From a virus (lineage: Duplodnaviria; Heunggongvirae; Uroviricota; Caudoviricetes), in the IMG/VR virus record IMGVR_UViG_3300031555_002005: DNA of 64,000 bases, one strand, 5' to 3'. A program made the position numbers and the translations under genes. Each line of letters starts with the position of its first letter. Within the stretch, counting starts at the first letter, position 1. The notes beneath the pieces are model-generated. The model ran no database searches, was not told where the DNA came from, and saw only the letters and a program-made list of their open reading frames with translations. This document shows positions 18,893 through 44,069 of this stretch, in pieces.

Positions 18893-18926
18893 GGCAGGGT
18901 AAAATTTGTTTATCCTGCCTAATTGA
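18893..18926 (+). terminator. rho-independent terminator
   Basis: TTAGGCAGG...CCTGCCTAA stem. Confidence 0.5.
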
Positions 18927-18980
18927 CATATGGAAAATTTTTGGTATAATAACAATACAAAATTAATAGGAGTGAATATT

Positions 18981-19118: not shown

Positions 19119-19129
19119 GAGGTAAGAAT

Positions 19130-19486
19130 ATGATTAAAGTTATATATAGTAAAGACGGACAACCTATTTCTGACTTTAAGGTATACGATGCTGTTGACGA
19201 TATGATTGAAGTTTATAACACCCATAGAAACACAATCACACAAGATATTCCTATTAAAACTTCTAGTGAACTTTATCTATCGGTTTTTTCTCTGCGTGTA
19301 ATGGAAGGGAAAATTTCAGCGGACGAAGTAGAGTTTTACTGTGAAGACGAAAAGTTAGAATTCGATATCTATTTCGGAGTTTCAATATCAAAAAATCACG
19401 CTATGGGATTTTTTGCGGAAGTTACTGAGAAAGCCGTTGTAACTGGATATAAAAATATGAAACGAGATAGATGTTACGACATATAA
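19130..19486 (+). CDS. hypothetical protein
   Basis: AAGAGGTAAG RBS. Confidence 0.55.
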   Translation: MIKVIYSKDGQPISDFKVYDAVDDMIEVYNTHRNTITQDIPIKTSSELYLSVFSLRVMEGKISADEVEFYCEDEKLEFDIYFGVSISKNHAMGFFAEVTEKAVVTGYKNMKRDRCYDI

Positions 19487-19724: not shown

Positions 19725-19726
19725 AA

Positions 19727-20254
19727 ATGAACCTAACAAAAGTAAGTAAATATATTAGTTTAATTTTGCGCCATAAGCCAGAAACAATTGGCATCAGCCT
19801 TGATGAGCATGGCTGGGCCAATGTAAAGGATCTTATTGATGGCGTAAATAAAACTCACAAGCTAGATATGAAAATGCTTGAAGAGATTGTAGCAACAGAT
19901 GATAAGCAGCGCTATTCTTTCAATGAAGATAAGACTATGATTCGTGCCAATCAGGGGCATTCTATTGATGTAGACGTGGAACTTGAAGAAGCTGTGCCTC
20001 CTGAGATGCTTTGGCATGGAACTGGTGTTAAATACATGAAGAGCATTGATACAGAGGGGCTTATTCCTAAGTCCAGATTGTATGTGCATTTGTCTACTGA
20101 TCCTAATACGGCAATGGAGGTCGGTAAGAGACATGGTGCACCTATGATTTACTGCATTGATGCGCTAAGAATGCATGAAGATGGATATAAGTTTTACAAA
20201 TCCAAGAACGGTGTGTGGTTAACTAAACATGTGCCTGCGGAGTATTTTAGGTAA
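19727..20254 (+). CDS. kptA: RNA 2'-phosphotransferase (Tpt1/KptA family)
   Basis: Strong similarity to E. coli KptA: LRHKPE, GW..V..L, RANQGHS, LWHGT, YVHLS, NGVWLT motifs. Confidence 0.85.
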   Translation: MNLTKVSKYISLILRHKPETIGISLDEHGWANVKDLIDGVNKTHKLDMKMLEEIVATDDKQRYSFNEDKTMIRANQGHSIDVDVELEEAVPPEMLWHGTGVKYMKSIDTEGLIPKSRLYVHLSTDPNTAMEVGKRHGAPMIYCIDALRMHEDGYKFYKSKNGVWLTKHVPAEYFR

Positions 20255-20265
20255 GGGAAAAGCGA

Positions 20266-20448
20266 ATGAAATGGATACATAAGGAAAATATAATTGGAGA
20301 GACAGTCAGTCATGAATGCTGTTGTTCTAAGTGTGGGTATGTAACCATAAGATACTCGCATTTAATTTATGATTTGAGAGCGGGAAAGCCATATAGTGCG
20401 CCTAAGTATAATTATTGCCCAAATTGTGGAGAGGGAGTGGAAGCATGA
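20266..20448 (+). CDS. zinc-ribbon small protein
   Basis: CCCSKCG...CPNCG. Confidence 0.45.
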   Translation: MKWIHKENIIGETVSHECCCSKCGYVTIRYSHLIYDLRAGKPYSAPKYNYCPNCGEGVEA

Positions 20449-20702
20449 ATATTAATCAAAAGTGTAACGGTAGAAATAATGTAATGATTGGTAGCTGCAA
20501 TGTAATTAAGGGAAGCAACATTATTAGTGGGTCTGCTATTATTGACGGAACTGTTATTGTTAATGGCGTAGAATTGCCACCGCCTCCTACTAAGTGCCGT
20601 AGCACTACAATTATTAATAATAAAGTATATATTGACGGCTATGAATTTAAGAATGGCAAATGGAAGAAGACGCTACGGGCGTGGTGGCATTTGTGGTTTT
20701 AA
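20445..20702 (+). CDS. hypothetical protein
   Basis: GGAGAGGGAG RBS before the ATG at 20445. Confidence 0.45.
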   Translation: MNINQKCNGRNNVMIGSCNVIKGSNIISGSAIIDGTVIVNGVELPPPPTKCRSTTIINNKVYIDGYEFKNGKWKKTLRAWWHLWF

Positions 20703-20714
20703 GGAGGTGTAAGT

Positions 20715-21509
20715 ATGCCCAAATTTTTTGTAAGTTCTGATATTCATAGTGCATATACTCCGTGGATGAAGGCATTAAAAGAAGCGGGTTTTGATGAAAA
20801 CAATCCTAGTCACAAAATTGTCGTATGCGGAGATTTGTTCGATAGACTGGATGAATCTATTCAGGTGTACGATTTTGTTAAGGACATGCTTGAAAAAGAT
20901 AAGTTAATTTACGTAAAAGGAAATCACGAAAGTCTAATGGAAGAATGCCTTGAAAGAGGATACCCTGGAAGGCATGATTGGTCAAATGGTACGGCAAAAT
21001 CTATTATTGACCTCGTTCCCCATGCAGAGAATTTTTATGATGGTTGCGCCGTCGTACGTGAAAAAATGAAATCTTTGTGGGGCAAGACTGTCAATTATTT
21101 TGAGACTAAGAATTATATTTTTGTACATGGCTGGATCCCGGTTATTTGCAAGGATAATTTGCCTAGCTATTATACTAGAAATAGAAAGTTTGAATTTAAC
21201 CCAGAGTGGCGTCATGCGCACTTTTCTGAGTGGGAACAGGCTAGATGGTTAAACGGTATGGATATGGCCAGAAAAGGCTTTGTGGAGCCTGAGAAGACTA
21301 TTGTATGCGGACACTGGCATTGCAGCTATGGTCATATGATGGATGATATGGCTAAGAATGGCCCATTTGATTGTATTGATGAATTTGGAGAAACTGCAAT
21401 TTGGGAACCTTATTATGGAAATGGTATAATTGCAATTGATCGCTGCACTGCACATACTGGAGAGGTTAATGTTCTTGTCATTGAGGATGAACTGTTGGAG
21501 GAATTATGA
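20715..21509 (+). CDS. calcineurin-like metallophosphoesterase (candidate 2',3'-cyclic phosphodiesterase/phosphatase)
   Basis: GDLFDR and GNHE motifs; AAGGAGG RBS. Confidence 0.7.
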   Translation: MPKFFVSSDIHSAYTPWMKALKEAGFDENNPSHKIVVCGDLFDRLDESIQVYDFVKDMLEKDKLIYVKGNHESLMEECLERGYPGRHDWSNGTAKSIIDLVPHAENFYDGCAVVREKMKSLWGKTVNYFETKNYIFVHGWIPVICKDNLPSYYTRNRKFEFNPEWRHAHFSEWEQARWLNGMDMARKGFVEPEKTIVCGHWHCSYGHMMDDMAKNGPFDCIDEFGETAIWEPYYGNGIIAIDRCTAHTGEVNVLVIEDELLEEL

Positions 21510-21661
21510 AAAAGTTAACAGCAAAGCAATGAGCAAACATACAATGGGCAAAGGGGAAAAATCCAATTCACTTATTTGGTAACGTATATTTGGTACGCTA
21601 TAAGTCTACACAGCTCTCTAAAATCCCATTTTATTTGATCAAAATTTTTAAAGAATACCCT

Positions 21662-22697: not shown

Positions 22698-22774
22698 GGT
22701 TCCGTGGCTCAGTGGTCTAGAGCAGCGGGCTCATAATCCGTCAGACTTCGGTTCGAATCCGAACGGAACCACCA
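22698..22774 (+). tRNA. tRNA-Met/Ile2 (anticodon CAU), CCA encoded
   Basis: Cloverleaf folded by hand: acceptor GGTTCCG/CGGAACC, T-loop TTCGAAT. Confidence 0.75.
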
Positions 22775-22777
22775 AAT

Positions 22778-22854
22778 GCTCTAGTAGCTCAGTTGGTTAG
22801 AGTATTCGCCTGATAAGCGAAAGGTCGGCTGTTCAAGTCAGCCCTAGAGCACCA
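22778..22854 (+). tRNA. tRNA-Ile (GAU), CCA encoded
   Basis: Acceptor GCTCTAG/CTAGAGC; anticodon loop CTGATAA. Confidence 0.8.
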
Positions 22855-22857
22855 AAT

Positions 22858-22983
22858 GACGGTGTAGCTCAGTTGGAAGAGCAATAGCCTTTGTCAGATG
22901 CAGGCTTGCACTAATTCAGTTCGATTCTGAAGTTTGGCACCATAAGCTATGGGTCGAGAGTTCGAGCCTCTCCACCGTCACCA
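22858..22983 (+). tRNA. interrupted tRNA. A 57-nt anticodon loop (about 50 extra nt) contains a tRNA-like minihelix ending in CCA. Would be tRNA-Lys (UUU) if the insert is excised.
   Basis: Acceptor GACGGTG/CACCGTC; D-arm; anticodon stem ATAGC/GCTAT separated by 57 nt; T-arm GAGAG-TTCGAGC-CTCTC; CCA encoded. Confidence 0.55.
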
Positions 22984-23009
22984 AAAGAAATGGAGTTTAT
23001 TATGTATCA

Positions 23010-23265
23010 TTCTTATTCTTGGAAGAAACATCATGATTGGGTTAAAGCGATAAGGAAAAGAAAAGTTGCAAAAGACATTTTCCCTTTTTATGACGAATGC
23101 CCCGAATTACATAAGCTCCATCATTATTCTAAAAATAAATTTCATTGTGTTTGGACTTATTCTCCGAAAACAAAGCAGAATGGAATTTATAACTACAAAG
23201 TAAGTGACATGCGAAAAATCCAAAGATTATTTGATTCTAAAAAAGAATATGATATGGTCCCTTAG
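23010..23265 (+). CDS. hypothetical protein inside the tRNA array
   Basis: AAATGGAG RBS; stop overlaps the start of tRNA-Asn. Confidence 0.4.
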
Positions 23266-23331
23266 CTCAGTTGGCAGAGCAATAGGCTGTTAACCTATGT
23301 GTCGCTGGTTCGAGCCCAGCAGGGATCGCCA
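23256..23331 (+). tRNA. tRNA-Asn (GUU), CCA encoded
   Basis: Anticodon loop CTGTTAA; good cloverleaf. Confidence 0.8.
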
Positions 23332-23450
23332 AGCCTAGTTAGTTATCTGCGCAGATACGGCACATCCCATGGTTAAGGCGGCTGACCTTATAAAAGCCAC
23401 CCTGGTACGGTGATAATGCTTGCTAACGGCAAAACAACCGTACAACATAT

Positions 23451-23604
23451 ATCCCAGTAGCTCAGCTGGATAGAGCAACGGTCTTCGGGGAGTTCGTTAA
23501 AAGGTAAGATACTTTAGGATAAAACCTAAGGAGATTACAGTTCGAGTCTGTTGCTCCCCACCATAAACCGTAGGTCGGGGGTTCGAGTCCCTCCTGGGAT
23601 ACCA
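23451..23604 (+). tRNA. interrupted tRNA. An 87-nt anticodon loop (23483-23569) contains a nested tRNA-like element (23487-23563). Would be tRNA-Arg (UCU) if the element is excised.
   Basis: Acceptor ATCCCAG/CTGGGAT; D-arm GCTC..GAGC; anticodon stem ACGGT/ACCGT separated by 87 nt; T-arm GGGGG-TTCGAGT-CCCTC; CCA encoded. Confidence 0.55.
23487..23563 (+). ncRNA. nested tRNA-like element inside the anticodon loop (acceptor GGGGAGT/GCTCCCC, anticodon arm TTAGG-ATAAAAC-CCTAA, T-arm, CCA)
   Basis: Folded by hand; ends ACCA; flanked by CTTC and TAA, which would join into a 7-nt loop CTTCTAA. Confidence 0.4.
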
Positions 23605-23610
23605 AAATAT

Positions 23611-23745
23611 CGGGAACAGGTGGAATGGTATACACATCGGAACCATAACTGAGTTTTGATAAAAACTTGCCAACAGCAAATACGTGGACGTAAAATCCGA
23701 CGCTTTTGCAAGCATCCTTGGTTCGAATCCAAGGGTTCCCGACCA
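23611..23745 (+). tRNA. class-II-like tRNA with an extra stretch of about 47 nt (a 54-nt segment between the anticodon-stem strands)
   Basis: Acceptor CGGGAAC/GTTCCCG; anticodon stem TCGGA/TCCGA separated by 54 nt; long variable hairpin; T-arm CCTTGG-TTCGAAT-CCAAGG; CCA encoded. Confidence 0.4.
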
Positions 23746-23748
23746 AAT

Positions 23749-23823
23749 GGTCCCGTCGTCTAGTGGCTAGGACTCAGGATTTTCATTCCTGCAACAGGGT
23801 TTCGAATACCCTCGGGATCACCA
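23749..23823 (+). tRNA. tRNA-Glu (UUC), CCA encoded
   Basis: Anticodon loop TTTTCAT; T-arm AGGGT-TTCGAAT-ACCCT. Confidence 0.8.
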
Positions 23824-23896
23824 ATAAAGTAATTCTTGTCAAACGATACACAAAAGATGCTAAAGAATTACCTAATTTTAAAAGTTAGGTGATAGC

Positions 23897-24541
23897 ATGG
23901 AACAGAAGAAAAAAGATTATTCCAAGTATAGAAAAAAGTATTGGAGAGAACAAATAAAACATAGAGGTGTTCAATTTCTAGGTGGTGTGTGTCGTAATTG
24001 CGGAGGCGCTTTTGAAGATTGTTGCTATGATTTTCATCATTTAAATCCAAAAGAAAAAGACTTCACGATTGGAAATGTACAAACTAACGGAGCAAAAAGT
24101 TGGTTTAAAGTACGTGACGAATTAAAGAAGTGTGTACTATTATGTGCGAACTGTCATCGTCTTGCTCATGCAGGACTAATTGAAACAGATCTTCAGTTAT
24201 ATTTTAATGATGAATACTATGAATGGGATTTGACAAAATTTAAACTAATTGATTCATCAACTGGTTTGCCCAAGGATGCAAATATTACATGTCCTATATG
24301 CGGACAATACAAATCTCCAAATGCAAATAAATGTTCAGAGTGTGCAATGAAAGAGCAAATAAGATTTGAAGTCTCACGAGAAGAATTAAAAGAAATGATA
24401 TACACTATGGCATTTACTGATATTGGTAAAAAATATGGGGTTTCTGATAATTCTATTAGAAAAAGATGTGAAAAATTTGGATTACCATCTTACAAGAAAG
24501 ATATTCTAAAATACTCACCAGAAGAGTGGGCATCTATTTAG
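23897..24541 (+). CDS. HNH homing endonuclease
   Basis: HHLNPKEKD...CANCHRLAH. Confidence 0.75.
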   Translation: MEQKKKDYSKYRKKYWREQIKHRGVQFLGGVCRNCGGAFEDCCYDFHHLNPKEKDFTIGNVQTNGAKSWFKVRDELKKCVLLCANCHRLAHAGLIETDLQLYFNDEYYEWDLTKFKLIDSSTGLPKDANITCPICGQYKSPNANKCSECAMKEQIRFEVSREELKEMIYTMAFTDIGKKYGVSDNSIRKRCEKFGLPSYKKDILKYSPEEWASI

Positions 24542-24611
24542 ATATTATTCTATAAAACATAGACAATAAGTTTTAAGAATGTATATTCTGTTTTAAAGTT
24601 GTCATTTATAC

Positions 24612-24687
24612 GGTGGTGTAGCATAGTGGCTAATGCGCTGGACTGTCTCTCCAGTTACCGTGGGTTCGAGTCCCATCACCATCGCCA
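24612..24687 (+). tRNA. tRNA-Asp (GUC), CCA encoded
   Basis: Anticodon loop CTGTCTC. Confidence 0.75.
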
Positions 24688-24690
24688 TAT

Positions 24691-24775
24691 CGGTGAGTCG
24701 CCTAGTTGGTTAGGGCAGCAGACTGTAAATCTGCCGGTTTTACCATCGTTGGTTCAAATCCAACCTCACCGACCA
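24691..24775 (+). tRNA. tRNA-Tyr (GUA), CCA encoded
   Basis: Anticodon loop CTGTAAA; long variable arm. Confidence 0.8.
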
Positions 24776-24917
24776 GTCCTCTTGATGCAGCGAGAGTAAG
24801 ATAATTTCAGCCGATGACAAGGCTATACATTGGTACTGCATTACCGATTCACGACGTAAATACGGATATAACAACGTATTTGAAGGACAGTGCCAACTAC
24901 TGGTTAGTTGGAGATCT

Positions 24918-24992
24918 GCGGTAGTAGCTCAATGGTAGAGTTCCAGATTTCCAATCTGGCTGTTGCGAGTTCGAGTCTCGTCTACCGCTCCA
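24918..24992 (+). tRNA. tRNA-Gly (UCC), CCA encoded
   Basis: Acceptor GCGGTAG/CTACCGC; anticodon loop TTTCCAA. Confidence 0.8.
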
Positions 24993-25214
24993 TGCTATAT
25001 GGAGTATGCAACTTTAATTAAATGAATTTAGTAATAAAGACTTCGGGCCTTGATGCGTACGACAGGGCTTTATGTAAAGGTGGATTAATAAGCTTAGAAG
25101 TACAAAAAGCTAAATGAGTTTAATTCATTGGGGGTTGTGCATAGCTCCGCTTCATATAGCAACCACCTGAACAAATGACATAGTGTTATGTGTGGCTGAC
25201 CAACCTTAAGGTCA

Positions 25215-25700
25215 ATGAATATTGAACAAGTAATTCTTTATAAAAGAATCGAAAAAGTACTTAAGAATTACCTAATAAATGACTTGGGTGATTCACAAAT
25301 GAAGAAAAAGGAAAGCTATTGTTTGAATTGTGGAGTTTCTATACCAAATAGAAATAAATATTGCTCAAACAAATGCCAACTAGATTTCCAATATAAAGAG
25401 TATATACAGAGATGGAAAAATGGGCTTGAAGATGGTATGAGAGGTGAATATCTTATATCAGTACACATTAGAAAATATTTAATGGAAAAGTTTGATAACA
25501 AATGCTCAAAATGTGGATGGGGAGAAATAAATCCTTATACCAAAAATGTACCACTAGAAGTCCATCATAAAGATGGAGATTATACCAATAATTCAGAAGA
25601 CAATCTTGACTTACTATGTCCAAATTGTCACTCATTAACAGAAACATATAAAGCTGCAAATAAAGGCAATGGAAGAAAAGATCGTAAAAAATACACATAA
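25215..25700 (+). CDS. HNH homing endonuclease
   Basis: EVHHKDGD...NLDLLCPNCH. Confidence 0.7.
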   Translation: MNIEQVILYKRIEKVLKNYLINDLGDSQMKKKESYCLNCGVSIPNRNKYCSNKCQLDFQYKEYIQRWKNGLEDGMRGEYLISVHIRKYLMEKFDNKCSKCGWGEINPYTKNVPLEVHHKDGDYTNNSEDNLDLLCPNCHSLTETYKAANKGNGRKDRKKYT

Positions 25701-25703
25701 TAT

Positions 25704-25777
25704 GCCCCGATAGTTCAACGGTAAAACGGTGGATTTGTAATCCTCTGTTCTCGGTTCAAGTCCGGGTCGGGGCTCCA
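25704..25777 (+). tRNA. tRNA-Thr (UGU), CCA encoded
   Basis: Acceptor GCCCCGA/TCGGGGC; anticodon loop TTTGTAA. Confidence 0.65.
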
Positions 25778-25914
25778 TATTAAAAGCACAAGTGGATAAG
25801 TACTTTATAGTCAACTGACTAGTCATGTCACGAAAGGTAAGACGAGTTTGCACAAAAATGGCCATGGACATTTAGTGATGAATCCGCAAATCTACGAAAC
25901 GGAGGATATTGCCT

Positions 25915-25962
25915 ATGATTGTTTGTAGTGAATCCAGTGTGGGGGACACCCCACCCGCTTAG
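25915..25962 (+). CDS. conserved 15-codon mini-ORF (MIVCSESSVGDTPPA), copy A
   Basis: GGAGGA RBS; homologous copy at 30959; followed by hairpin 25971-25998 and then the next gene. Confidence 0.4.
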   Translation: MIVCSESSVGDTPPA

Positions 25963-26017
25963 TAGTGGGTTTCGCCGTTCCCACCAAAAACGGCGAACTT
26001 AATTAAGAGGTAATAAA

Positions 26018-26200
26018 ATGTGTAAACACCAAAACGGAAGTATATCAAGTATGTTTGGCATTCCAGTAGATCCTTGTGTGTACAAGGATATTGAAGCATA
26101 CAAGAATGTAACAGTAATTGTTAGCAAATGTATTCACTGTGGTGCTATTAATATCAGTTGGAAGCGTCAGGAAGATACTGAAGAAATTGAAGTTGAGTAA
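26018..26200 (+). CDS. Cys-containing small protein
   Basis: AGAGGTAA RBS. Confidence 0.5.
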   Translation: MCKHQNGSISSMFGIPVDPCVYKDIEAYKNVTVIVSKCIHCGAINISWKRQEDTEEIEVE

Positions 26201-26208
26201 TTAAATAT

Positions 26209-26299
26209 GGGGAATTGGCCGAGTGGTCGAAGGCAGCTGACTTGAAATCAGTAGACGGTGCTGAGCCGTCCGTGGGTTCGAATCCTACATTCCCCGCCA
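26209..26299 (+). tRNA. tRNA-Ser (UGA), CCA encoded
   Basis: Class II; anticodon loop CTTGAAA. Confidence 0.75.
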
Positions 26300-26344
26300 C
26301 AAAATGGGCTTACGGCTTCACCCAACCAAAGAAGCCGACGATAT

Positions 26345-26436
26345 GGAGCAGTACCCAAGTGGCTATAAGGGGACGCCCTGCTAAGGCGTTAGACCGAGCA
26401 ATCGGTGCGAGAGTTCGAATCTCTCCTGCTCCGCCA
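26345..26436 (+). tRNA. tRNA-Ser (GCU), CCA encoded
   Basis: Class II; anticodon loop CTGCTAA. Confidence 0.75.
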
Positions 26437-27064
26437 TGCACTCAAGGGCACTACAGATGTTACCGATATTAGAAAACTCATATCGCCCTCGTAAATACTA
26501 AGAATGGTGCGAAGTATTTACACAAATCTCACGCAACACTACTTATTGCAGTAAGTTGATTGAATAAAGGTGTTGCTTATATAGGGGAGTCGTTCAAAGG
26601 AAGGACTGTAGTCTCCAAAACTACCAATGGGATATCGTGATTCTCCTCCCCTGCCAAGTAAGTGATACTTAAATACTGCAGAATAAAGGATTTGCCTTCC
26701 AGGGAACTGTGCCTGCATAGATCCCGTTTACTGGTGTTGATGCCAAAGTACACGGTGCAGTAGCCAGCTGATAAAGCCAACAACAAAGATTGGCCGCTTG
26801 TTTCGTGCGGCATATAAAAGTGAAACTCGCTAGTCACAGTGTGAACCTGAAAAAGATGCTTCGTCAAAAGCTTAAAATGGCATCGCTCTTCAATAATTGG
26901 CGGTTGTTGGAAATCTAAAGAAAGGAAATTATGTATCATGTGGAAGACTTTTAAAAAGAGACTTTTTGATGCTATTGTTGAATACGGTAAGTTTGTTCAG
27001 TTTATGTATTCCTAATAGCGTTATTAAGTGGATCATTGAGCCTAAAAAGCTTAATGATTCCCTC

Positions 27065-27093
27065 TTGACAAATCTTAAAACATGTGATATAAT
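27065..27093 (+). promoter_or_regulatory. sigma-A-type promoter
   Basis: TTGACA-N17-TATAAT, followed by the conserved element and tRNAs. Confidence 0.55.
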
Positions 27094-27128
27094 TCCTTCA
27101 GTTCAAAGGAACAATACAAAATTAATAT

Positions 27129-27216
27129 TGGGGATTCGCCTAGAGGCTAAGGGCGGCGGGCTTTGACCCCGTTTGGAGAAATCCTATCGTGTGTTCGAAT
27201 CACACATCCCCAACCA
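27129..27216 (+). tRNA. tRNA (anticodon UUG, Gln-like) with an atypically long variable arm
   Basis: Acceptor TGGGGAT/ATCCCCA; anticodon loop CTTTGAC; T-arm GTGTG-TTCGAAT-CACAC. Confidence 0.5.
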
Positions 27217-27219
27217 TAT

Positions 27220-27296
27220 AGAGCCGTAGCCAAGCGGTTAAGGCATCAGACTCTGACTCTGACATTTCATTGGTTCAAATCCAATCGGCTCTACCA
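27220..27296 (+). tRNA. tRNA-Gln (CUG), CCA encoded
   Basis: Acceptor AGAGCCG/CGGCTCT; anticodon loop CTCTGAC. Confidence 0.7.
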
Positions 27297-27322
27297 TTAT
27301 TTATTTGACATTAAAGAAGTGA

Positions 27323-27922
27323 TTGACATTGGCGAAACATGTAACTACAGAAGAAATAGCAACAAGAATAAAAAATACTTTTAAACAAAATGTTTCATTA
27401 GTTGGAGAATATAAGAATAAACGATCAAAATTAACATTACATTGTAATGATTGTGGACATGAATGGGAATCTCCATCAAGTAGTGTTATATATGGAGATA
27501 GACACGAGTGTCCTCGGTGTGGAAGACATGCAAAACAATTGAATGAATTTCAATGTACAAACTGTGGACAAGTTGTGTATCGTAAAGATTCAGACATTAA
27601 AAAGAATCAAACAGGTAATTTCTTTTGTTCTCAACAATGTGGAAATGAGTTTAAAAATCGAATACGAAAAGAAAGTGGAGAATGGGATAACTCGTTAAGC
27701 TATAGACGGAAAGCATTTGAAACTTATGAACATTTATGTTGTGTATGCGGTTGGAATGAAGATGAAAGAATTTTAGAAGTTCATCATAAAGATGAAGATC
27801 GTACAAACAATATGGTAAATAATCTATGTATTCTATGTCCTACATGTCATAGAAAAATAACATTAGGATATTATGAATTAACAGATGATTTCAAGCTAGT
27901 TGATAAAAATCAAAAGAATTAA
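27323..27922 (+). CDS. HNH homing endonuclease (start uncertain)
   Basis: EVHHKDEDRTNN...CPTCHRK; N-terminal CxxC pairs. Confidence 0.65.
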   Translation: MTLAKHVTTEEIATRIKNTFKQNVSLVGEYKNKRSKLTLHCNDCGHEWESPSSSVIYGDRHECPRCGRHAKQLNEFQCTNCGQVVYRKDSDIKKNQTGNFFCSQQCGNEFKNRIRKESGEWDNSLSYRRKAFETYEHLCCVCGWNEDERILEVHHKDEDRTNNMVNNLCILCPTCHRKITLGYYELTDDFKLVDKNQKN

Positions 27923-27925
27923 TAT

Positions 27926-28003
27926 CCGGTAGTGGCCAAATTTGGTAAGGCTCTTGATTTGGGTTCAAGAAATTTGCACGTTCGAGTCGTGTCTACCGGA
28001 CCA
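27926..28003 (+). tRNA. tRNA-Pro (UGG), CCA encoded
   Basis: Acceptor CCGGTAG/CTACCGG; anticodon loop TTTGGGT. Confidence 0.75.
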
Positions 28004-28028
28004 CAAAAAATAACAAAAGGAGATTTTT

Positions 28029-28202
28029 ATGCTAGAATTTGGAACAACTGTAACCGATACCAACACTGGATATTCAGGTAAGATCACCGCACGTGCAGAG
28101 TATAATATTGGTACAATTTTGTATCTGGTCGAAAGCGTTGATACAACTGGTAGACCGATTGAACAGTGGATTAACTCTGAAAGAATTGAAGTAGAAATTT
28201 AA
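28029..28202 (+). CDS. hypothetical small protein (57 aa)
   Basis: AAGGAGA RBS. Confidence 0.5.
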   Translation: MLEFGTTVTDTNTGYSGKITARAEYNIGTILYLVESVDTTGRPIEQWINSERIEVEI

Positions 28203-28212
28203 AAAATACCCC

Positions 28213-28240
28213 TTGACAAATCAGAATTATATGATATAAT
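28213..28240 (+). promoter_or_regulatory. sigma-A-type promoter for the tRNA-like cluster
   Basis: TTGACA-N16-TATAAT, then the conserved element. Confidence 0.5.
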
Positions 28241-28269
28241 ACAAGCAGTTCAAGGGAACAGTACAAAAT

Positions 28270-28560
28270 TAATAAAGGCGCACACAGCAAATTTACTATA
28301 TGGTTAAAATTTTTTATGTTTGTGTTAAAAAATGAGAAGGTTCAAATCCTTTAAAAATTTCATGCGCCTTGACAAAAAAAGACACTAACAGCAACTTTAT
28401 TAACTATACAATTTGGGCTTGTAAATATTGTTAATAGTGTCTTGAATATGGGAACGTCCGGTGGCAGTAAATAAGTGCATGGAGTGGGCAGCACACACAG
28501 CAATTTTACTTAACAATTTCTGGAAAAAATTGACTCCTTGGTTCAACTCCGAGGGTTCCC
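28270..28560 (+). ncRNA. three hairpin-enclosed RNA units, each carrying a CACANACAGCAA(A)TTT motif
   Basis: 8-bp closing stems AAGGCGCA/TGCGCCTT, AAGACACT/AGTGTCTT, AGTGGG/CCCACT. T-arm-like GGTTCAAATCC inside unit 1. Confidence 0.35.
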
Positions 28561-28582
28561 AAAAATCCCACTAACTTAATAT

Positions 28583-28712
28583 GCGGAAGTAGCTCAGCTG
28601 GGAGAGCAATAGTATTTATTTAAAAATGTGTTTAGATTAACACTAACAGCAATTTTTATTTAAAGAAGAAGTTGGGGACTATGGGTCGTAGGTTCGAGCC
28701 CTACCTTCCGCA
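28583..28712 (+). tRNA. interrupted tRNA: 64-nt anticodon loop carrying the ACAGCAATTTTTA motif
   Basis: Acceptor GCGGAAG/CTTCCGC; D-arm GCTC-AGCTGGGA-GAGC; anticodon stem ATAGT/ACTAT separated by 64 nt; T-arm GTAGG-TTCGAGC-CCTAC. Confidence 0.5.
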
Positions 28713-28724
28713 TCAACTAAATAT

Positions 28725-28852
28725 GCCAGAGTAGCTCAGTTGGTAGAGCACGTATATATCAACCAACGTGGTATGAAAATTTCACGCACAGCAATTTTAA
28801 TGATTCTTGCCTTTTAAGCACGTTGTCGTGGGTTCGAGTCCCATCTCTGGCA
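28725..28852 (+). tRNA. interrupted tRNA: about 55 extra nt between the D- and T-arms carrying the ACAGCAATTTTA motif
   Basis: Acceptor GCCAGAG/CTCTGGC; D-arm GCTC-AGTTGGTA-GAGC; T-arm GTGGG-TTCGAGT-CCCAT. Confidence 0.45.
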
Positions 28853-28862
28853 AACTTTATAT

Positions 28863-28981
28863 GGCGCAATGGTGTAATGGTAGCACAACGTAATAATTGA
28901 GGTTTGTTAAAATCTTAAACTGCAATTTTACAATGCATGATCACGCCGTAGGTTGAAGTTCGATTCTTCATTGCGTCTCCA
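28863..28981 (+). tRNA. interrupted tRNA-like: about 45 extra nt carrying a CTGCAATTTTA motif; CCA encoded
   Basis: Acceptor GGCGCAA/TTGCGTC; D-arm GTGT-AATGGTA-GCAC; T-arm TGAAG-TTCGATT-CTTCA. Confidence 0.4.
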
Positions 28982-28997
28982 AATTAACAATTAAATA

Positions 28998-29118
28998 AAG
29001 GCACATACAGCAATTTTAAATTCTGAAGCAGCCATTTTGCTTTGTAGTATAACTGGTTAGTACGCAGGACTGATAATCCTGAAATGCTGGTTCGAGTCCA
29101 GTCTTTAAAAATGTGCCT
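28998..29118 (+). ncRNA. 9-bp-stem-enclosed unit: the motif plus a tRNA-like 3' three-quarter (anticodon arm CAGGA-CTGATAA-TCCTG, T-arm)
   Basis: Outer stem AAGGCACAT/ATGTGCCTT; no canonical acceptor pairing found. Confidence 0.35.
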
Positions 29119-29353
29119 TGCAATTAAAAGAGAGACGAACAGCAAATTGATTGAATTAAAGAAGATAGAAAACTTATTTACTAATTATTGTTGTTTTATT
29201 TATGTATTAGATTATTTATCACTTTTAAGTCTCTCGAATAAATAAAATCTCCAAAGACGCTAACAGCAATGTACGACTTGACTGCAAATCAATAATCGTA
29301 AAATGCGTCTTGGATTTTAGTAATAAAATCAAAACTTTTAGGAGGAACAAAAA

Positions 29354-30907
29354 ATGGAATTTATGAGTGCAGTTAGACAGACTCTCAATAATGAGTACAA
29401 TGTGTCTATCACTGAGAACGGCGCAGTTGGTTATAGAACCACTGGCAAGGAGCTGCTTGACCTGAACTTTGCAGTAGCATCTCTTCGTAAGATGACCGAT
29501 GCAGAAGTCGCAAAGAGATTCAAGAAGGCTTTTTGTGAAGATCAGGTTCTCGCAATGAAGTGGCTGTTCTACGCAAGAGACGTTCGTGGTGGTTTGGGTG
29601 AGCGTAGACTGTTCAGAGTTGTTCTGGCAGATCTGGTACAGTCCAATCCTGAAATGGTTATTCCTGTCATGAATCTGATTCCTGAGTATGGTCGCTACGA
29701 TGACCTGTGGTGTCTGTTAGATGACAAGGAAGCAGCTAATGTGATTTATCAGATTGTTGATAATCAGCTGAAGCGTGACTGGGAAAACATGGCTTCAAAG
29801 AAGCCTATTTCTATTCTGGCAAAGTGGATGCCTTCTATCAATGCATCTTCTGCTAAGACCAAGGAATACGGAAAGAAGCTGTGCAAGGCTCTGAAGATGA
29901 CTGAGCGTGAATACCGCAAGGCTCTGAGCAAGCTTCGTGCATATCTGGATGTTGTTGAAGTTAAGATGTCCGATAAGAACTGGTCTGCAATTAAGTATGA
30001 AGCAGTTCCTTCTCGTGCAAATCTGATTTACAACAGCGCATTCCTGAGAAATGACGAAGCAAGACGTAGAGAATATCTTGGCCAGCTTGAAAAGGGCGAG
30101 ACTAAGATTAACGCATCTACTCTGTTCCCTCACGATATTGCTCATAAGTATACTAACAACTCATGGGGTCGTGGTCTAAAGGCAAAGGATGCAACCATTG
30201 AAGCTCTGTGGAAGGCGCTACCTGACACTGTAAATGGCTGTGGTAATACTATTGTTGTTGCTGACGGCTCTGGTAGTATGACTTGCACTGTTGACAATCA
30301 CTCTCGTGTTACTGCACTTGAAGTTGCAAACGCACTGGCAATTTACTTTGCTGAGCACTCTTCTGGTCAGTTCAAGGATAAGTACATTACTTTCTCTGAA
30401 AGACCTCAGTTTGTTGACTTCAGCAATTGTAAGACTCTGCATGACAAGCTACACACTGCACTAATGCATAATGAAGTTGCAAATACTAACATCGAAAAGG
30501 TGTTTGATTTGATTCTGACTTCTGCGGTCAATAACCATATGCATCAGGAAGATCTTCCTCAGAACATCCTGATCATCTCTGATATGGAGTTTGATAGCTG
30601 TGCAACTTCTGGCAATGTTGATCGTTGGAGCTACCGTAACAGACCTACTCAGAAGCTATTCGATGTTATCGCTCAGAAGTACGCAAGAGCAGGTTACAAG
30701 ATGCCTCGTCTGGTATTCTGGAATGTAAACTCTCGCACTGGTACTATTCCTGTAAAGGAAAATGACCTTGGTGTGGCACTGGTCAGCGGTTTCTCTGTAA
30801 ACGTTGCCAAGATGGTCATGAGTGGCAAGACTGATCCTTTCGAGTGTCTGCTTGAAACTCTGAACTCTGAGAGATATGCTCCTGTTGAGGAAGCTTTAAA
30901 TCAGTAA
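29354..30907 (+). CDS. vWA-domain protein (DUF2828-like; possibly a Ro60/TROVE-related RNA-binding protein)
   Basis: MIDAS motif VVADGSGSM in the C-terminal half; helical N-terminal domain; GGAGG RBS. The family assignment is from memory. Confidence 0.5.
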   Translation: MEFMSAVRQTLNNEYNVSITENGAVGYRTTGKELLDLNFAVASLRKMTDAEVAKRFKKAFCEDQVLAMKWLFYARDVRGGLGERRLFRVVLADLVQSNPEMVIPVMNLIPEYGRYDDLWCLLDDKEAANVIYQIVDNQLKRDWENMASKKPISILAKWMPSINASSAKTKEYGKKLCKALKMTEREYRKALSKLRAYLDVVEVKMSDKNWSAIKYEAVPSRANLIYNSAFLRNDEARRREYLGQLEKGETKINASTLFPHDIAHKYTNNSWGRGLKAKDATIEALWKALPDTVNGCGNTIVVADGSGSMTCTVDNHSRVTALEVANALAIYFAEHSSGQFKDKYITFSERPQFVDFSNCKTLHDKLHTALMHNEVANTNIEKVFDLILTSAVNNHMHQEDLPQNILIISDMEFDSCATSGNVDRWSYRNRPTQKLFDVIAQKYARAGYKMPRLVFWNVNSRTGTIPVKENDLGVALVSGFSVNVAKMVMSGKTDPFECLLETLNSERYAPVEEALNQ

Positions 30908-30958
30908 ACTGGTACACGCAAGTGTCTTGTTTAAATAATCCAAAGGAGGACTTTGCCT

Positions 30959-31006
30959 ATGATTGTATCAGCTAATTCCAACTTGGAGGATTGTCCACCA
31001 GCTTAG
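30959..31006 (+). CDS. conserved 15-codon mini-ORF (MIVSANSNLEDCPPA), copy B
   Basis: GGAGGA RBS; about 75-nt conserved element shared with 25893-25975. Confidence 0.4.
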   Translation: MIVSANSNLEDCPPA

Positions 31007-31073
31007 GTGGAGTCCTGGGTAAGACTTAAAACTGCCCATTCAGACATTAACAGCAAACAATAATTACTTGGTT

Positions 31074-31148
31074 GCGAGGTTAGCTTAGCTGGTCTAAAGC
31101 AATAGATGTGAAAATCTATGATCACTGGTTCGAACCCAGTACCTTGTG
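31074..31148 (+). tRNA. tRNA-like with a non-canonical (6- or 8-nt) anticodon loop; identity undetermined; no CCA
   Basis: Acceptor GCGAGGT/ACCTTGT with G-U pairs; D-arm GCTT..AAGC; ATAGA-TGTGAAAA-TCTAT; T-arm ACTGG-TTCGAAC-CCAGT. Confidence 0.4.
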
Positions 31149-31176
31149 TTTAAGTGATAATGTCTAGTTTCTATAT

Positions 31177-31254
31177 TGCGGAGTGGACAAGAGGTCTAAG
31201 TCGCCAGCCTCATAAGCTGGAGGTCGCTGGTTCGAATCCAGCCTCACGCAACCA
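31177..31254 (+). tRNA. tRNA-like with CAU anticodon arm; acceptor stem imperfect (possible pseudo-tRNA or mis-parse)
   Basis: CCAGC-CTCATAA-GCTGG; T-arm GCTGG-TTCGAAT-CCAGC; acceptor pairs only 5 of 7. Confidence 0.3.
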
Positions 31255-31257
31255 TAT

Positions 31258-31344
31258 GCCGCTGTGGTGGAATCGGTAGACACCAGGGACTTAAAATCCC
31301 TTGCTGACAACAGCGTACGAGTTCGAGTCTCGTCAGCGGCACCA
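31258..31344 (+). tRNA. tRNA-Leu (UAA), CCA encoded
   Basis: Acceptor GCCGCTG/CAGCGGC; anticodon loop CTTAAAA; long variable arm. Confidence 0.8.
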
Positions 31345-31379
31345 TAAAAAATATTGGCACTTTGAAAGGAGAAATTAAA

Positions 31380-31538
31380 ATGCCTGTATTTTATATTTTA
31401 GTCATTCTCGCAGCGTGTCTGTTGTGGTTCTTACTAGCTTTTATGTTTAAGCCAATGGGAAAGCTTGGACATAGAATCTGGAAAGATGCAGTAGATGCAA
31501 TGAATGAGGATGATGAAAACGAAAACAAAAAGGAGTAA
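31380..31538 (+). CDS. small membrane protein (52 aa)
   Basis: AAGGAGAAA RBS; hydrophobic N-terminus. Confidence 0.5.
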   Translation: MPVFYILVILAACLLWFLLAFMFKPMGKLGHRIWKDAVDAMNEDDENENKKE

Positions 31539-31544
31539 AAACAA

Positions 31545-32465
31545 ATGAGAAAAGGTAGTATTGGCGCAATTCTTCTGGCATTTCTGATCTTTGGTGGACT
31601 GCTTCTATGTCTAGCATGCACAGAAAAGATTCCGACTGGTTATGTTGGTGTTGTTTACAACATGAGCGGTGGCGTAGATGGTGAAGTGCTTTCCCAGGGC
31701 TTCCATATCGTAGCACCCACTAAGAAGGTAACCACTTATTCTGTAGGACTAGAGCAGAGTTATCTGTCTTCTGAAGATGTTGGCGACTCCCCGAAGGATG
31801 AAAGTTTCAACATTCCTACTTCTGATGGTAAGACTGTCCGTGTAAATCTAGAATTCTCTTATCGTTTTGATTCCGAGCGTGTTGCAGAAACCTTTACTAT
31901 GTTTAAGGGTAAGTCTGGTGAAAACATTAAGGAAACCTTTATTAAGCCCAAGGTAATGGCATGGACTCAGGAAGTTTCCGCAAAGTATCCTGTTACAGAC
32001 ATTTTTGGTGACAAGCGTACTGCTATCAATGCAGAGCTAGACATTTATCTGCGTGAAAAGTTTGCACCTTATGGCATTATTATTGACACTGTAAACTTTA
32101 CTGACATTTCTGTTGACAATGAAACTGCCGCAGCAATTCAGAAGAAGGTTAATGCACAGCAGGAACTAGAGCTTGCAAACATTGAAGCAGAAACTGCAAA
32201 GATTCAGGCCCAGAAGGACAAAGAGGTTGCACGTGTTCAGGCAGAAAAGGACAAGGAAGTTGCCGCTATTAAGGCAGAGCAGAAGATTATTGCAGCCGAA
32301 GCAGATGCCGAGGCACTAAGAATTGCATCTGAAGCAGAAGCAGAAGCAAACCGTGAGATCGCAGCTTCTCTGACTCCTCAGCTAATCGAGAAGATTAAGT
32401 ATGAGCAGTGGAATGGTCAGATGCCCAAGGTCACTGGTGGCAGTTCTATTGTAAGTATTGATTAA
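31545..32465 (+). CDS. SPFH/band-7 (prohibitin/HflK-like) membrane protein
   Basis: N-terminal TM; SPFH core; Ala/Glu-rich coiled-coil repeats. Confidence 0.7.
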   Translation: MRKGSIGAILLAFLIFGGLLLCLACTEKIPTGYVGVVYNMSGGVDGEVLSQGFHIVAPTKKVTTYSVGLEQSYLSSEDVGDSPKDESFNIPTSDGKTVRVNLEFSYRFDSERVAETFTMFKGKSGENIKETFIKPKVMAWTQEVSAKYPVTDIFGDKRTAINAELDIYLREKFAPYGIIIDTVNFTDISVDNETAAAIQKKVNAQQELELANIEAETAKIQAQKDKEVARVQAEKDKEVAAIKAEQKIIAAEADAEALRIASEAEAEANREIAASLTPQLIEKIKYEQWNGQMPKVTGGSSIVSID

Positions 32466-32485
32466 AACTAAATTGAGGTAACACA

Positions 32486-32749
32486 ATGAAGAAGAACAAG
32501 CAGGATATTCTCACTCTAAAGACTCAGGAATATGCATCTGCGGCAAAGGAAGCAGAAAATGCAGTGTCTATGGTTTCTACTGCTATGAATCGTCTAAAGG
32601 CAGCAAACCATAGAATGGAAAGCAACATGAAGGACATTCGAGAGTATTGTACCAACATGATGGCTATTCATGATCAGATGGGCAAGGATCATGCCCACAA
32701 TGAAGCAGTTATTTCCAACTTTTCTAAGCTGCTATGCATTGAAGAGTAA
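32486..32749 (+). CDS. hypothetical protein
   Basis: GAGGTAA RBS. Confidence 0.55.
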   Translation: MKKNKQDILTLKTQEYASAAKEAENAVSMVSTAMNRLKAANHRMESNMKDIREYCTNMMAIHDQMGKDHAHNEAVISNFSKLLCIEE

Positions 32750-32756
32750 TTAAATA

Positions 32757-32780
32757 TAGGGGTGTTTTACACCCCTAAAA
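32757..32780 (+). terminator. rho-independent terminator
   Basis: AGGGGTG-TTTTA-CACCCCT. Confidence 0.6.
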
Positions 32781-32858
32781 TATTAATAACAGGCTCATAT
32801 TATTTACAACAAAATGCAAGTTCGAGTCTTAAATAAATTTTAAGCGGGTGACAAGAAC

Positions 32859-33704: not shown

Positions 33705-33707
33705 TAT

Positions 33708-33792
33708 GCAGGTGTGTATGGAATGGTAGACAGGGTAGACTCAAAATCTACTGGCATATGCCGTGTGGGTTCGAATCCCACCACCTGCACCA
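33708..33792 (+). tRNA. tRNA-Leu (CAA), CCA encoded
   Basis: Acceptor GCAGGTG/CACCTGC; anticodon loop CTCAAAA; long variable arm. Confidence 0.75.
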
Positions 33793-33957
33793 AATCCCAA
33801 AGCTGACAGAGCGCAGGGGTGAACTTGATGATCCCGTCAGCAGGGCCCGAGCTAAGCCGGGAAGGAAAGCGGCGCTTTTCGGTGAAGTGCGACGCCAAGG
33901 ATATATCTGGAGAACTGTGTTCTCAATTTAAGGGTTATATCAAACCGAATTAAATAT

Positions 33958-34049
33958 CCAGCAATGGCGAAAATGGTAAACGCAGTCCGCAGTAGGATTG
34001 CCTGATAGCGCAGTCGGGCATGATAGTTCAAGTCTATCTTGCTGGGCCA
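33958..34049 (+). tRNA. tRNA-like with an enlarged 25-nt anticodon loop; CCA encoded
   Basis: Acceptor CCAGCAA/TTGCTGG; D-arm GCG..CGC; stem GTCCG/CGGGC separated by 25 nt; T-arm GATAG-TTCAAGT-CTATC. Confidence 0.35.
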
Positions 34050-42302: not shown

Positions 42303-42303
42303 A

Positions 42304-44049: not shown

Positions 44050-44069
44050 TTTGATTGGAGAATAATATT

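Follow-up and report, generated by a model that had tools for sequence, protein, structure and literature searches.

A predicted Tpt1/KptA RNA 2′-phosphotransferase beside a metallophosphoesterase and a tRNA array in an uncultured tailed phage

We analysed a 64,000-nucleotide stretch of DNA from a tailed virus (Caudoviricetes; IMG/VR record IMGVR_UViG_3300031555_002005), referred to below in its entirety as the window, in which a gene for an RNA 2′-phosphotransferase of the Tpt1/KptA family lies shortly upstream of a gene for a metallophosphoesterase (MPE). An earlier account made from the letters alone (the sequence-only reading) had pointed to both genes and had proposed that, together with a ligase and kinase module and interrupted tRNAs in the same window, they imply the formation and resolution of RNA junctions bearing a 2′-phosphate (2′-PO4) during infection. 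The two genes, which like all open reading frames (ORFs) of note in the window lie on the + strand, are:

19727..20254, + strand: predicted Tpt1/KptA NAD+-dependent RNA 2′-phosphotransferase, 175 aa (PF01885, phrog_5470, PDB 7kw8, catalytic tetrad)
20715..21509, + strand: stand-alone binuclear metallophosphoesterase of the lambda-phosphatase / Pnkp-phosphatase / ApaH branch, 264 aa (PF00149, five motifs, AF2 model and Foldseek)

The first of these ORFs belongs to Tpt1/KptA, a membership as secure as sequence allows. It matches the Pfam profile PF01885 (E 3.3e-48, 164.5 bits against a cut-off of 26), with residues 4–167 covering profile positions 4–176 of 177, that is, its full length, and the PHROG profile phrog_5470, ‘RNA 2′-phosphotransferase’ (E 5e-76). 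Its best solved relative is the Runella slithyformis enzyme (RslTpt1, 7kw8; E 2.7e-49, residues 3–174 on 4–176), followed by that of C. thermocellum (CthTpt1, 6e3a; E 7e-35). In a phmmer alignment to 7kw8, R15, H16, R62 and R117 of the phage protein fall on Arg16, His17, Arg64 and Arg119, the experimentally defined catalytic tetrad of RslTpt1 (PMC8464070; PMC6097658), and these four residues, the inter-lobe linker Q76-G77-H78-S79 and the NAD+-pocket H121 of VHLS are invariant in an alignment of five phage homologues (the window Tpt1 and four other phage sequences). The QGHS linker and the VHLS histidine also align with the same residues in both solved relatives. The whole-length relationship claimed by the sequence-only reading is thus upheld by the full profile match and the end-to-end alignment to 7kw8. 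All five motifs on which it relied (LRHKPE, RANQGHS, LWHGT, YVHLS and NGVWLT) are found, with only LRH and the Arg ahead of YVHLS forming part of the tetrad, and the catalytic Arg and His residues, whose absence had been named as grounds for abandoning the assignment, are intact in a proper alignment. The gene is accordingly predicted to encode a catalytically competent Tpt1, its enzymatic activity and its substrate being matters of prediction alike.

A Tpt1 gene in a phage is not new. A tblastn search recovered Tpt1 in 98 GenBank phage records, many annotated ‘RNA 2′-phosphotransferase’ or kptA, among them jumbo phages of Erwinia, Dickeya, Klebsiella and Serratia, phiCD211-like phages of C. 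difficile, and phages of Bacillus and Listeria, and at least 357 IMG/VR stretches encode a relative; the suggestion that a phage-borne Tpt1 is notable in itself loses force accordingly. An RNA-repair role is reasonable and already published: caudovirus KptA has been proposed to act as an NAD+-dependent 2′-phosphate clean-up enzyme in tRNA repair, with ligases, 2H, Macro and calcineurin-like enzymes as partners (Iyer et al. 2021, PMC7824862; 2022, PMC9503650). No biochemical study of any phage Tpt1 was found in the literature searched. The window protein resembles its known phage counterparts (phrog_5470, phiCD211 kptA, Ea35-70 gp082, phage G gp280) at 43–57% identity over 95–97% of its length, whereas its clade differs from theirs in joining Tpt1 with an MPE and a tRNA array and in having no close DNA relative among isolates (a near-identity search of positions 19000–22000 against GenBank phages gave no match).

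The calcineurin-like phosphoesterase, recognised earlier by its GDLFDR and GNHE motifs 460 nt past Tpt1, is confirmed by PF00149 (E 1.1e-13, 52.5 bits against a cut-off of 21.5) and by five intact motifs (D9xH11, G39D40xxD43R44, G69N70H71E72, H138 and G199H200xH202), with D9, H11, G39, D40, D43, R44, G69, N70, H71, H138, G199 and H200 invariant in 27 homologues. An AF2 model built on 27 homologues (pLDDT 94.3) finds as its top Foldseek match the lambda Ser/Thr phosphatase (1g5b, E 6e-10, TM 0.59/0.70) and as its second the phosphatase domain of CthPnkp (4j6o, E 1e-6), followed by calcineurin, ApaH and PP5. Among PHROG profiles the MPE matches the phosphatase segments of two fusions, 246 (Pnk-MPE) and 8238 (Pnk-MPE-ligase), the former named ‘NinI-like serine-threonine phosphatase’, and JGI calls its relatives ‘serine/threonine protein phosphatase 1’. 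The gene is in several relatives fused to, or invaded by, a homing endonuclease, because NUMOD4 and HNH_3 stand beside Metallophos in some close homologues of ~430–440 aa (among P0006, P0016, P0020, P0026, P0031, P0103 and P0112). The likeness to bacterial Pnkp extends to the kinase domain of the polynucleotide kinase encoded further downstream (Pnk-HD, see below), which matches the CthPnkp kinase (4gp7); unlike in Pnkp, the window activities lie on separate polypeptides and the kinase shares its own with an HD domain, and the window showed no Hen1 partner. The Pnkp-type arrangement, an MPE fused to or directly clustered with a 5′-OH kinase and an RNA ligase, was not found in the window, where the MPE stands 19–21 kb from the ligase and Pnk-HD in a separate transcription unit.

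These matches raise the alternative that the MPE acts on host proteins, as a Ser/Thr phosphatase of the lambda (NinI-like) type, or on nucleotides, as a hydrolase, and is unrelated to Tpt1 or to RNA ends and adjacent by coincidence, which we regard as possible though somewhat unlikely. The best match of the MPE by both fold and sequence is the lambda Ser/Thr phosphatase, with ApaH among the fold neighbours, and the database names agree with such a role, as does the retention of the MPE without Tpt1 in relatives described below. The part matched in phrog_246 and phrog_8238 is, however, the phosphatase segment of Pnk-MPE(-ligase) fusions, and MPE-like genes recur in phage ligase-Pnk cassettes; in the relatives seen, the MPE itself stands a few kb upstream of a tRNA array.

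Tpt1 and the MPE are, judging from promoter consensus, probably co-transcribed from a host-type promoter, because the genes are tightly packed and the perfect + strand promoter at 18923 is followed by the next only at 21663, past the MPE. The other features of this unit are:

18923..18950, + strand: predicted perfect extended -10 sigma-70/sigma-A-type promoter, TTGACA-N16-TGgTATAAT (12/12 consensus match), heading the Tpt1/MPE unit
19130..19486, + strand: 118-aa ORF, no Pfam match, first long ORF of the unit (called as a gene on metagenome contig L003)
19518..19724, + strand: 68-aa Cys-rich ORF, no Pfam match, its stop 2 nt ahead of the Tpt1 start
20266..20448, + strand: 60-aa zinc-ribbon-like ORF with two CxxC pairs (weak PF13240 match, E 0.0045)
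20446..20702, + strand: 85-aa ORF with a repetitive beta-helix-like segment, its start overlapping the preceding stop (ATGA) (gene calls on L003–L006)

Intergenic distances from 19130 to 21509 are −3 to 31 nt, and a ribosome-binding site precedes each of Tpt1 and the MPE. The small ORFs are conserved in related contigs: the 68-aa ORF is 77–90% conserved upstream of Tpt1 in L008, L009 and L170 and is missing along with Tpt1 in L171, the 60-aa ORF is 77–79% conserved in L008, L009 and L170 and is a gene call on four exact-match contigs, and the 85-aa ORF, which has no family match in Pfam or PHROGs, is 83% identical in L008 and L009, the 60- and 85-aa ORFs both being called as genes beside an identical Tpt1. 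A 95-aa version with a TTG start in the same gap proved to be an artefact, the metagenome contigs carrying the 85-aa call instead. The 460-nt distance between Tpt1 and the MPE therefore stands as first described, though the gap is not an empty spacer. In the window as a whole we counted 15 perfect TTGACA-N16/17-TATAAT promoters, all on the + strand and nearly all with the extended -10 TG (8116, 10039, 18923, 21663, 22080, 22159, 22575, 27065, 28213, 34475, 35695, 44912, 46965, 55937 and 61706), several of which have in common the longer consensus TTGACAATACAAAATTAATGTG(n)TATAAT. As predicted sites they would fit a block of genes dependent on host RNA polymerase in a Firmicute-type phage.

The pairing of the two genes was followed in 81 viral Tpt1 loci (from IMG/VR, with Tpt1 51–87% identical to that of the window). 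An MPE relative lies within 10 kb of Tpt1 in only five of them (L008–L011 and L063), all in the window phage's own clade and all with a tRNA array nearby, which rules out a Tpt1-MPE operon conserved across IMG/VR; a further contig, L170, has an 82% identical MPE with Tpt1 just upstream. What stays constant at this locus is the MPE, next to which Tpt1 is a variable insertion, because L171, L172/L173 and L089 keep the MPE without Tpt1. In L171 and L172/L173 the MPE holds the same syntenic position as in the window, within a shared block that consists of YorF-like, AAA_24 and YorH-like genes, a 515-aa protein, small ORFs, the MPE, two conserved ORFs and tRNAs. In L089, the only new locus from an IMG/VR search with the MPE, the MPE is 60% identical and tRNAs follow within a few kb, and in all relatives examined the MPE holds this position relative to a tRNA array. 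Tpt1 and the MPE are thus neighbours, as the sequence-only reading described, and not an obligate or functional pair; their adjacency is local gene order.

Downstream of the MPE lies the following feature:

22698..34049, + strand: tRNA array of ~25 tRNA or tRNA-like genes, the first 1.2 kb past the MPE (ARAGORN, Rfam)

The interrupted tRNAs noted previously are indeed present in it. Rfam calls tRNAs of 123, 151, 130 and 128 nt at 22858, 23451, 28583 and 28725, two of which are clear on Rfam, ARAGORN and direct reading: tRNA-Lys(UUU) (22858–22980) carries a 50-nt insert at 22893–22942, and tRNA-Arg(UCU) (23451–23601) a 77-nt insert at 23487–23563, which ARAGORN itself calls as a tRNA with the same boundaries. 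Both inserts split anticodon positions 35/36, and each is tRNA-like from G+1 to CCA, with an acceptor-like stem, a T-arm with a GTTCGAnTC loop, and a discriminator A. Homologous interrupted tRNAs also occur in relatives (L010 13509–13632 and 14545–14695, L170 10178–10323, L171 9248–9370, and in L011), and the acceptor-like stem of the intron covaries fully between phages (GGGGAG/CTCCCC, GTCAAC/GTTGGC, GCAGAG/CTCTGC). In L010 the Lys intron lies 1 nt further 3′, and the CUUUUAA loop still results once G...CCA is removed. The drum RNA (RF02958, 72 bits) was found inside the tRNA arrays of L009 (16266–16376) and L171 (11295–11405), and Rfam gave no match to it in the window itself.

The ends of these introns suggest, as read from the sequence, an RNase P-type 5′ cut and a cut after CCA followed by ligation; with such ends, excision would leave 3′-OH/5′-PO4 termini that could be ligated without a kinase or Tpt1. 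Excision by self-cleaving ribozymes finds no support from known Rfam families, no ribozyme or group I intron having been found in the window tRNA region at gathering or E-value thresholds. The literature on phage tRNA introns spliced by RNase P or a ligase yielded nothing specific beyond a report on Lak megaphages, whose tRNA introns are described as ‘enigmatic’, one being predicted to encode a tRNA (bioRxiv 10.1101/356790).

This evidence bears on a further alternative, that Tpt1, Pnk-HD and the ligase carry out a yeast-like heal-seal-dephosphorylate splicing of the phage's own intron-bearing pre-tRNAs. In its favour, interrupted tRNAs do exist and are conserved, their intron stems covary, the window encodes all downstream Trl1/Tpt1-type enzymes except a 2H phosphodiesterase, and how phage tRNA introns are spliced is an open matter (bioRxiv 10.1101/356790). 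We nevertheless consider this very unlikely: the introns are complete tRNA-like units down to the CCA, suggesting cuts that create no 2′-PO4, and no splicing endonuclease (Sen/EndA, tRNA_int_endo) domain was found by Pfam in the 68 window ORFs scanned. Furthermore, L171, which has no Tpt1 at the syntenic site, keeps the same interrupted tRNA-Lys, and L009, which has Tpt1, shows no interrupted tRNA among the 19 in the part covered. The window shares with the fungal and plant systems (Trl1/AtRNL, 2H CPDase, kinase and Tpt1) a Tpt1, a 5′-OH kinase, an ATP-dependent RNA ligase and intron-bearing tRNAs, and differs in that its introns are 50- and 77-nt tRNA-like units at 35/36 and not short anticodon-loop introns at 37/38. 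As a source of 2′-PO4 the interrupted tRNAs, to which the sequence-only reading had appealed, are accordingly not favoured; together with the rest of the array they are candidate substrates of Tpt1.

The ligase and kinase module that had been placed at 40–43 kb is likewise present, with a Thg1-like gene beyond it:

40124..41509, + strand: ATP-dependent RNA ligase, N-terminal OB domain followed by a nucleotidyltransferase domain (phrog_968 ‘RNA ligase’, E 9e-66)
41493..42302, + strand: nucleotidyltransferase accompanying the ligase (phrog_388, E 3e-17)
42274..43200, + strand: Pnk-HD, bifunctional 5′-OH polynucleotide kinase (N-terminal) and HD phosphohydrolase (C-terminal) (PF13671, HD)
44055..44903, + strand: Thg1-like protein of the 3′-5′ nucleotide addition, tRNA 5′-end repair family (PF04446, E 1e-27; phrog_4717, E 2e-86)

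A LAGLIDADG homing endonuclease gene (43261–44049) splits the Thg1-like gene from the rest, and a stand-alone HD protein is encoded at 37744–38520. The ligase is 50% identical to the RNA ligases of Bacillus phages PBC2 and Kirov and matches PF21189 (OB) and PF09414 weakly; a sequence comparison with the PDB matched no solved ligase, Trl1 included. Its domain order looks Rnl5-like, an assignment based on the weak Pfam matches, a PHROG profile and a weak link to the Rnl5-type ligase of the contig L182 described below. The kinase half of Pnk-HD is clear (PF13671, E 1e-27 at residues 16–147; relatives Pnkp1 4xrp, CthPnkp 4gp7 and T4 Pnk 1ltq) and its HD match, at residues 187–281, weak.

The ligase has 258 relatives in IMG/VR, and within 10 kb of the best 80 of these we found Pnk in 69, the nucleotidyltransferase in 64, a Ro-like gene in 44, a Thg1-like gene in 18, the stand-alone HD protein in 12 and a lambda-phosphatase-like MPE (29–40% identical) in 12. 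Where present, the MPE-like gene sits between the ligase and a stand-alone kinase. Phage ligase-kinase cassettes thus repeatedly have an MPE of the lambda-phosphatase branch where others have the HD domain, and because of this recurrence the idea that the window MPE heals RNA ends gains some support. In two cassettes (L112 4098–5861 and L113 11841–13692) ORFs judged by eye to be Macro-like and NADAR-like stand between ligase and MPE; no Tpt1 lies within 10 kb in either.

The closest characterised precedent is that of Runella, where RslTpt1, a proven 2′-phosphotransferase, is encoded in a cluster with an MTase-HIT protein, an ATP-dependent ligase and an HD-Pnk, and where the ligase failed to join ordinary 3′-OH/5′-PO4 ends (PMC6097658). 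The window resembles it in having the same Tpt1 tetrad, an ATP-dependent ligase ORF that overlaps the next gene, and a kinase with an HD phosphoesterase. It differs in domain order (HD-Pnk there, Pnk-HD here), in being a phage and not a bacterial chromosome, in the absence from the window of any MTase-HIT gene that we could see, and in that Tpt1 (19.7 kb) and ligase/Pnk-HD (40.1–43.2 kb) are parted by the tRNA array and several promoters. By analogy, the precedent for a Tpt1 with a ligase and an HD-Pnk may be called suggestive.

To describe what Tpt1 travels with elsewhere, neighbours within 5 kb were counted by tblastn with representative queries in the 81 viral loci and in 80 loci from genomes or metagenome-assembled genomes (MAGs), counts raised by near-identical contigs from different samples and bounded by what tblastn can detect:

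Macro / PARG-type macro: 35/81 viral, 8/80 genome or MAG
NAMPT: 35/81 viral, none found in 80 genome or MAG
NadE: 28/81 viral, none found in 80 genome or MAG
CCA-adding enzyme: 14/81 viral, none found in 80 genome or MAG
MPE: 5/81 viral, 2/80 genome or MAG
Thg1-like: 1/81 viral, 3/80 genome or MAG
Ligase: 0/81 viral, 2/80 genome or MAG
Pnk: 0/81 viral, 4/80 genome or MAG

The dominant association of Tpt1 is with NAD+ salvage and ADP-ribose processing. In NAMPT-carrying loci the NAMPT stop lies 16 nt ahead of Tpt1, and the Macro assignment in viral loci rests on a DarG-type macro domain match (5m31, E 1e-5). Tpt1 releases nicotinamide, the substrate of NAMPT, and ADP-ribose cyclic phosphate, and since it does so these neighbours are compatible with any NAD-consuming activity. 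The window has NAD+ supply genes of its own:

48768..49937, + strand: NadR-like NMN adenylyltransferase/kinase (Pfam)
49938..50429, + strand: AAA_33 kinase (Pfam)
50426..51118, + strand: PnuC NMN transporter (Pfam)

With a gene for an NAD-dependent DNA ligase 2.5 kb downstream (53618–55573), the set looks like an NAD+ supply for at least two consumers, LigA and Tpt1.

The counts lend themselves to an alternative that we judge unlikely, in which Tpt1 serves an NAD+/ADP-ribose economy or counter-defence, ADP-ribosylating 5′-phosphate ends of RNA or DNA or moving the 2′-phosphates of NADP(H) or small molecules. Macro, NAMPT and NadE (35, 35 and 28 of the viral loci) against no ligase or Pnk would be as expected, the MPE of the window fills the slot downstream of Tpt1 that Macro holds in other phages, and Tpt1 enzymes can cap 5′-PO4 ends with ADP-ribose and act on NADP(H), according to three reports (PMC6182162, PMC10622864, PMC12170183). 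Clustering with NAD salvage is, however, expected of any NAD-consuming repair enzyme, since nicotinamide is released. MPEs are not known to hydrolyse Appr>p, and since an MPE occupies the same locus without Tpt1, it is not dedicated to a Tpt1 by-product. Macro/PARG and Tpt1 also occur together within an operon for a ligase and a Thg1-like protein. This operon, on an Acetatifactor MAG contig (L182), encodes a PARG-macro, a Thg1-like protein (6002–6880), an Rnl5-type ligase (matching NgrRnl 5cot, E 8e-35) and a Tpt1 68% identical to that of the window, with spacers of 2–13 nt; another bacterial MAG contig (L223) has an AAA_33 kinase, a Thg1-like protein (6929–7705), a 90-aa ORF and Tpt1. Genetically, the strongest case that the clade of the window Tpt1 can act in RNA repair comes from these two operons. 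The window has a Thg1-like protein (54% identical) and an OB-nucleotidyltransferase ligase of the same kinds as L182; the genes are contiguous there and spread over 25 kb in the window, and the ligases are weakly similar N-terminally (E 7e-4).

A rather improbable variant is that Tpt1 acts before ligation, as an NAD+-dependent end healer that removes terminal 2′- or 3′-phosphates of broken or blocked tRNA alongside the MPE. The gene does lie beside a phosphoesterase and a tRNA array, and the C. thermocellum and A. pernix enzymes remove terminal 2′- and 3′-PO4, whereas RslTpt1, to which the window protein is closer (E 2.7e-49 versus 7e-35 for CthTpt1), is reported to be ineffective on them (PMC6573784). 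The phage, moreover, already has HD and MPE phosphoesterases for terminal phosphates.

The most likely role of the window Tpt1, to which we give roughly even odds (a probability of about 0.5), is that of a clean-up step in phage-encoded repair of tRNA or RNA breaks. Tpt1 would be an accessory early gene just upstream of the phage tRNA array. Host anticodon nucleases would leave 2′,3′-cyclic-phosphate and 5′-OH ends, which Pnk-HD (42274–43200) and possibly the MPE would heal; the ligase (40124–41509), with the nucleotidyltransferase and the Thg1-like protein, would restore and seal the healed ends; Tpt1 would strip the 2′-phosphate left wherever opening of the cyclic phosphate had halted at the 2′-PO4 stage; and the NadR-like and PnuC genes would help to replenish the NAD+ consumed. 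Support comes from the presence in one genome of the ligase, the nucleotidyltransferase, Pnk-HD, the Thg1-like protein, Ro/TROVE-like genes and ~25 tRNAs, cooperation of Tpt1 with the MPE or the ligase module being a conjecture from this shared gene content.

Whether 2′-PO4 junctions would arise at all depends on two activities. A junction 2′-PO4 needs a cyclic phosphodiesterase that stops at 2′-PO4/3′-OH and a ligase that accepts that end, and in fungi and plants a 2H domain and a Trl1-type ligase supply them. Candidate phosphodiesterases in the window are the HD domain of Pnk-HD, the stand-alone HD protein and the MPE. The sequence-only reading presented the formation of 2′-PO4 junctions as an implication of the gene set; with no 2H domain, Trl1-type ligase or splicing endonuclease among the 68 ORFs scanned in the 64-kb window, it is an inference and not a consequence, and 2′-phosphorylated RNA in infected cells is to be regarded in the same conditional light.

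Several observations weigh against a repair role. Pfam found no 2H (LigT/CPDase) cyclic phosphodiesterase in the 68 ORFs scanned, nor any Macro domain, and no Trl1/Rnl1-type ligase requiring a 2′-PO4 was found in the window. The healing enzymes of the HD and MPE types may remove the phosphate fully, leaving Tpt1 no task. A distance of 20 kb separates Tpt1 from the ligase module, which belongs to another transcription unit; none of the 80 related ligase cassettes has a Tpt1 within 10 kb, and no contig name is common to the best-80 Tpt1 and best-80 ligase lists, counts that describe neighbourhoods of up to 10 kb on each side of a match and not co-occurrence across genomes. Tpt1 is thus not a regular member of the ligase cassette, and the co-occurrence with ligase and Pnk genes that the sequence-only reading had suggested checking did not emerge from either set of viral neighbourhoods. 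In 35 of the 81 viral loci Tpt1 accompanies NAMPT and Macro rather than repair enzymes. In L171, whose flanking proteins are 87–97% identical to those of the window, the segment that runs from the 68-aa ORF across Tpt1 to the 85-aa ORF is missing at this site. Finally, the physiological substrate of bacterial Tpt1 is itself an open question (PMC6573784).

The remainder of the window places these genes in a large uncultured gut or rumen phage, whose close relatives are contigs of 100–330 kb in IMG/VR and ENA. Among isolates, the polymerase is most like that of Clostridium phage Amboise (47.5%), and the ligase (50%) and Pnk-HD (33%) are most like those of Bacillus siphophages of 160–170 kb; the nearest binned Tpt1 genes come from rumen and gut MAGs of Lachnospiraceae, Acetatifactor, Eubacterium and Oscillospiraceae. 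The window also encodes GIY-YIG, HNH and LAGLIDADG homing endonucleases, an SPFH protein, a cysteine desulfurase, RecJ, the NAD-dependent DNA ligase, DNA polymerase III alpha and ThyX. Near its left end lie a reverse transcriptase (RVT_1, 419 aa, E 9e-22, 1208–2467) and, near this, two tyrosine recombinase genes (9034–10008 and 10091–11005). Within the tRNA array, a Ro/TROVE-like protein of 517 aa (29354–30907; DUF2828 and DUF7788, phrog_850 ‘RNA-binding protein’, E 1e-141) is preceded by a region (28275–29310) with at least nine copies of ACAGCAA(T/A)TTT, each directly after the 5′ strand of a 6–7 bp closing stem. Some of these elements are simple hairpins (28381–28443, 29253–29310), one (28997–29117) wraps the whole of tRNA-Ile GAU, and others lie inside tRNA genes (28583–28712, 28725–28852, 28863–28981). 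The region has its own perfect promoter (28213–28240) and stops just ahead of the Ro/TROVE-like gene, and the elements may be Y-RNA-like partners of its product (the YrlA match is weak, E 0.09).

The boldest form of the repair reading, that this uncultured Clostridia-type phage has a complete self-encoded line of tRNA maturation and repair, in which tRNA-like introns are cut out, their ends healed by Pnk-HD and the MPE, sealed by the OB-type ligase and cleared by Tpt1, is highly improbable. If true, it would be yeast-style heal-seal-dephosphorylate splicing in a bacteriophage and would provide the first natural substrate for a bacterial-type Tpt1, what Tpt1 naturally acts on outside fungi and plants being a long-standing question (PMC6573784). 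As a locus, the window adds little that is new, namely another phage Tpt1 whose neighbouring phosphoesterase is not a conserved partner, and the tight L182 operon is a better genetic argument for RNA repair. Phages that carry Tpt1, a ligase, Pnk-HD, Thg1-like and Ro-like proteins, NAD salvage genes and intron-bearing tRNAs are nonetheless a compact setting in which to seek 2′-phosphorylated RNA, and the window and L171 form a natural pair, with and without Tpt1, for asking what Tpt1 contributes.

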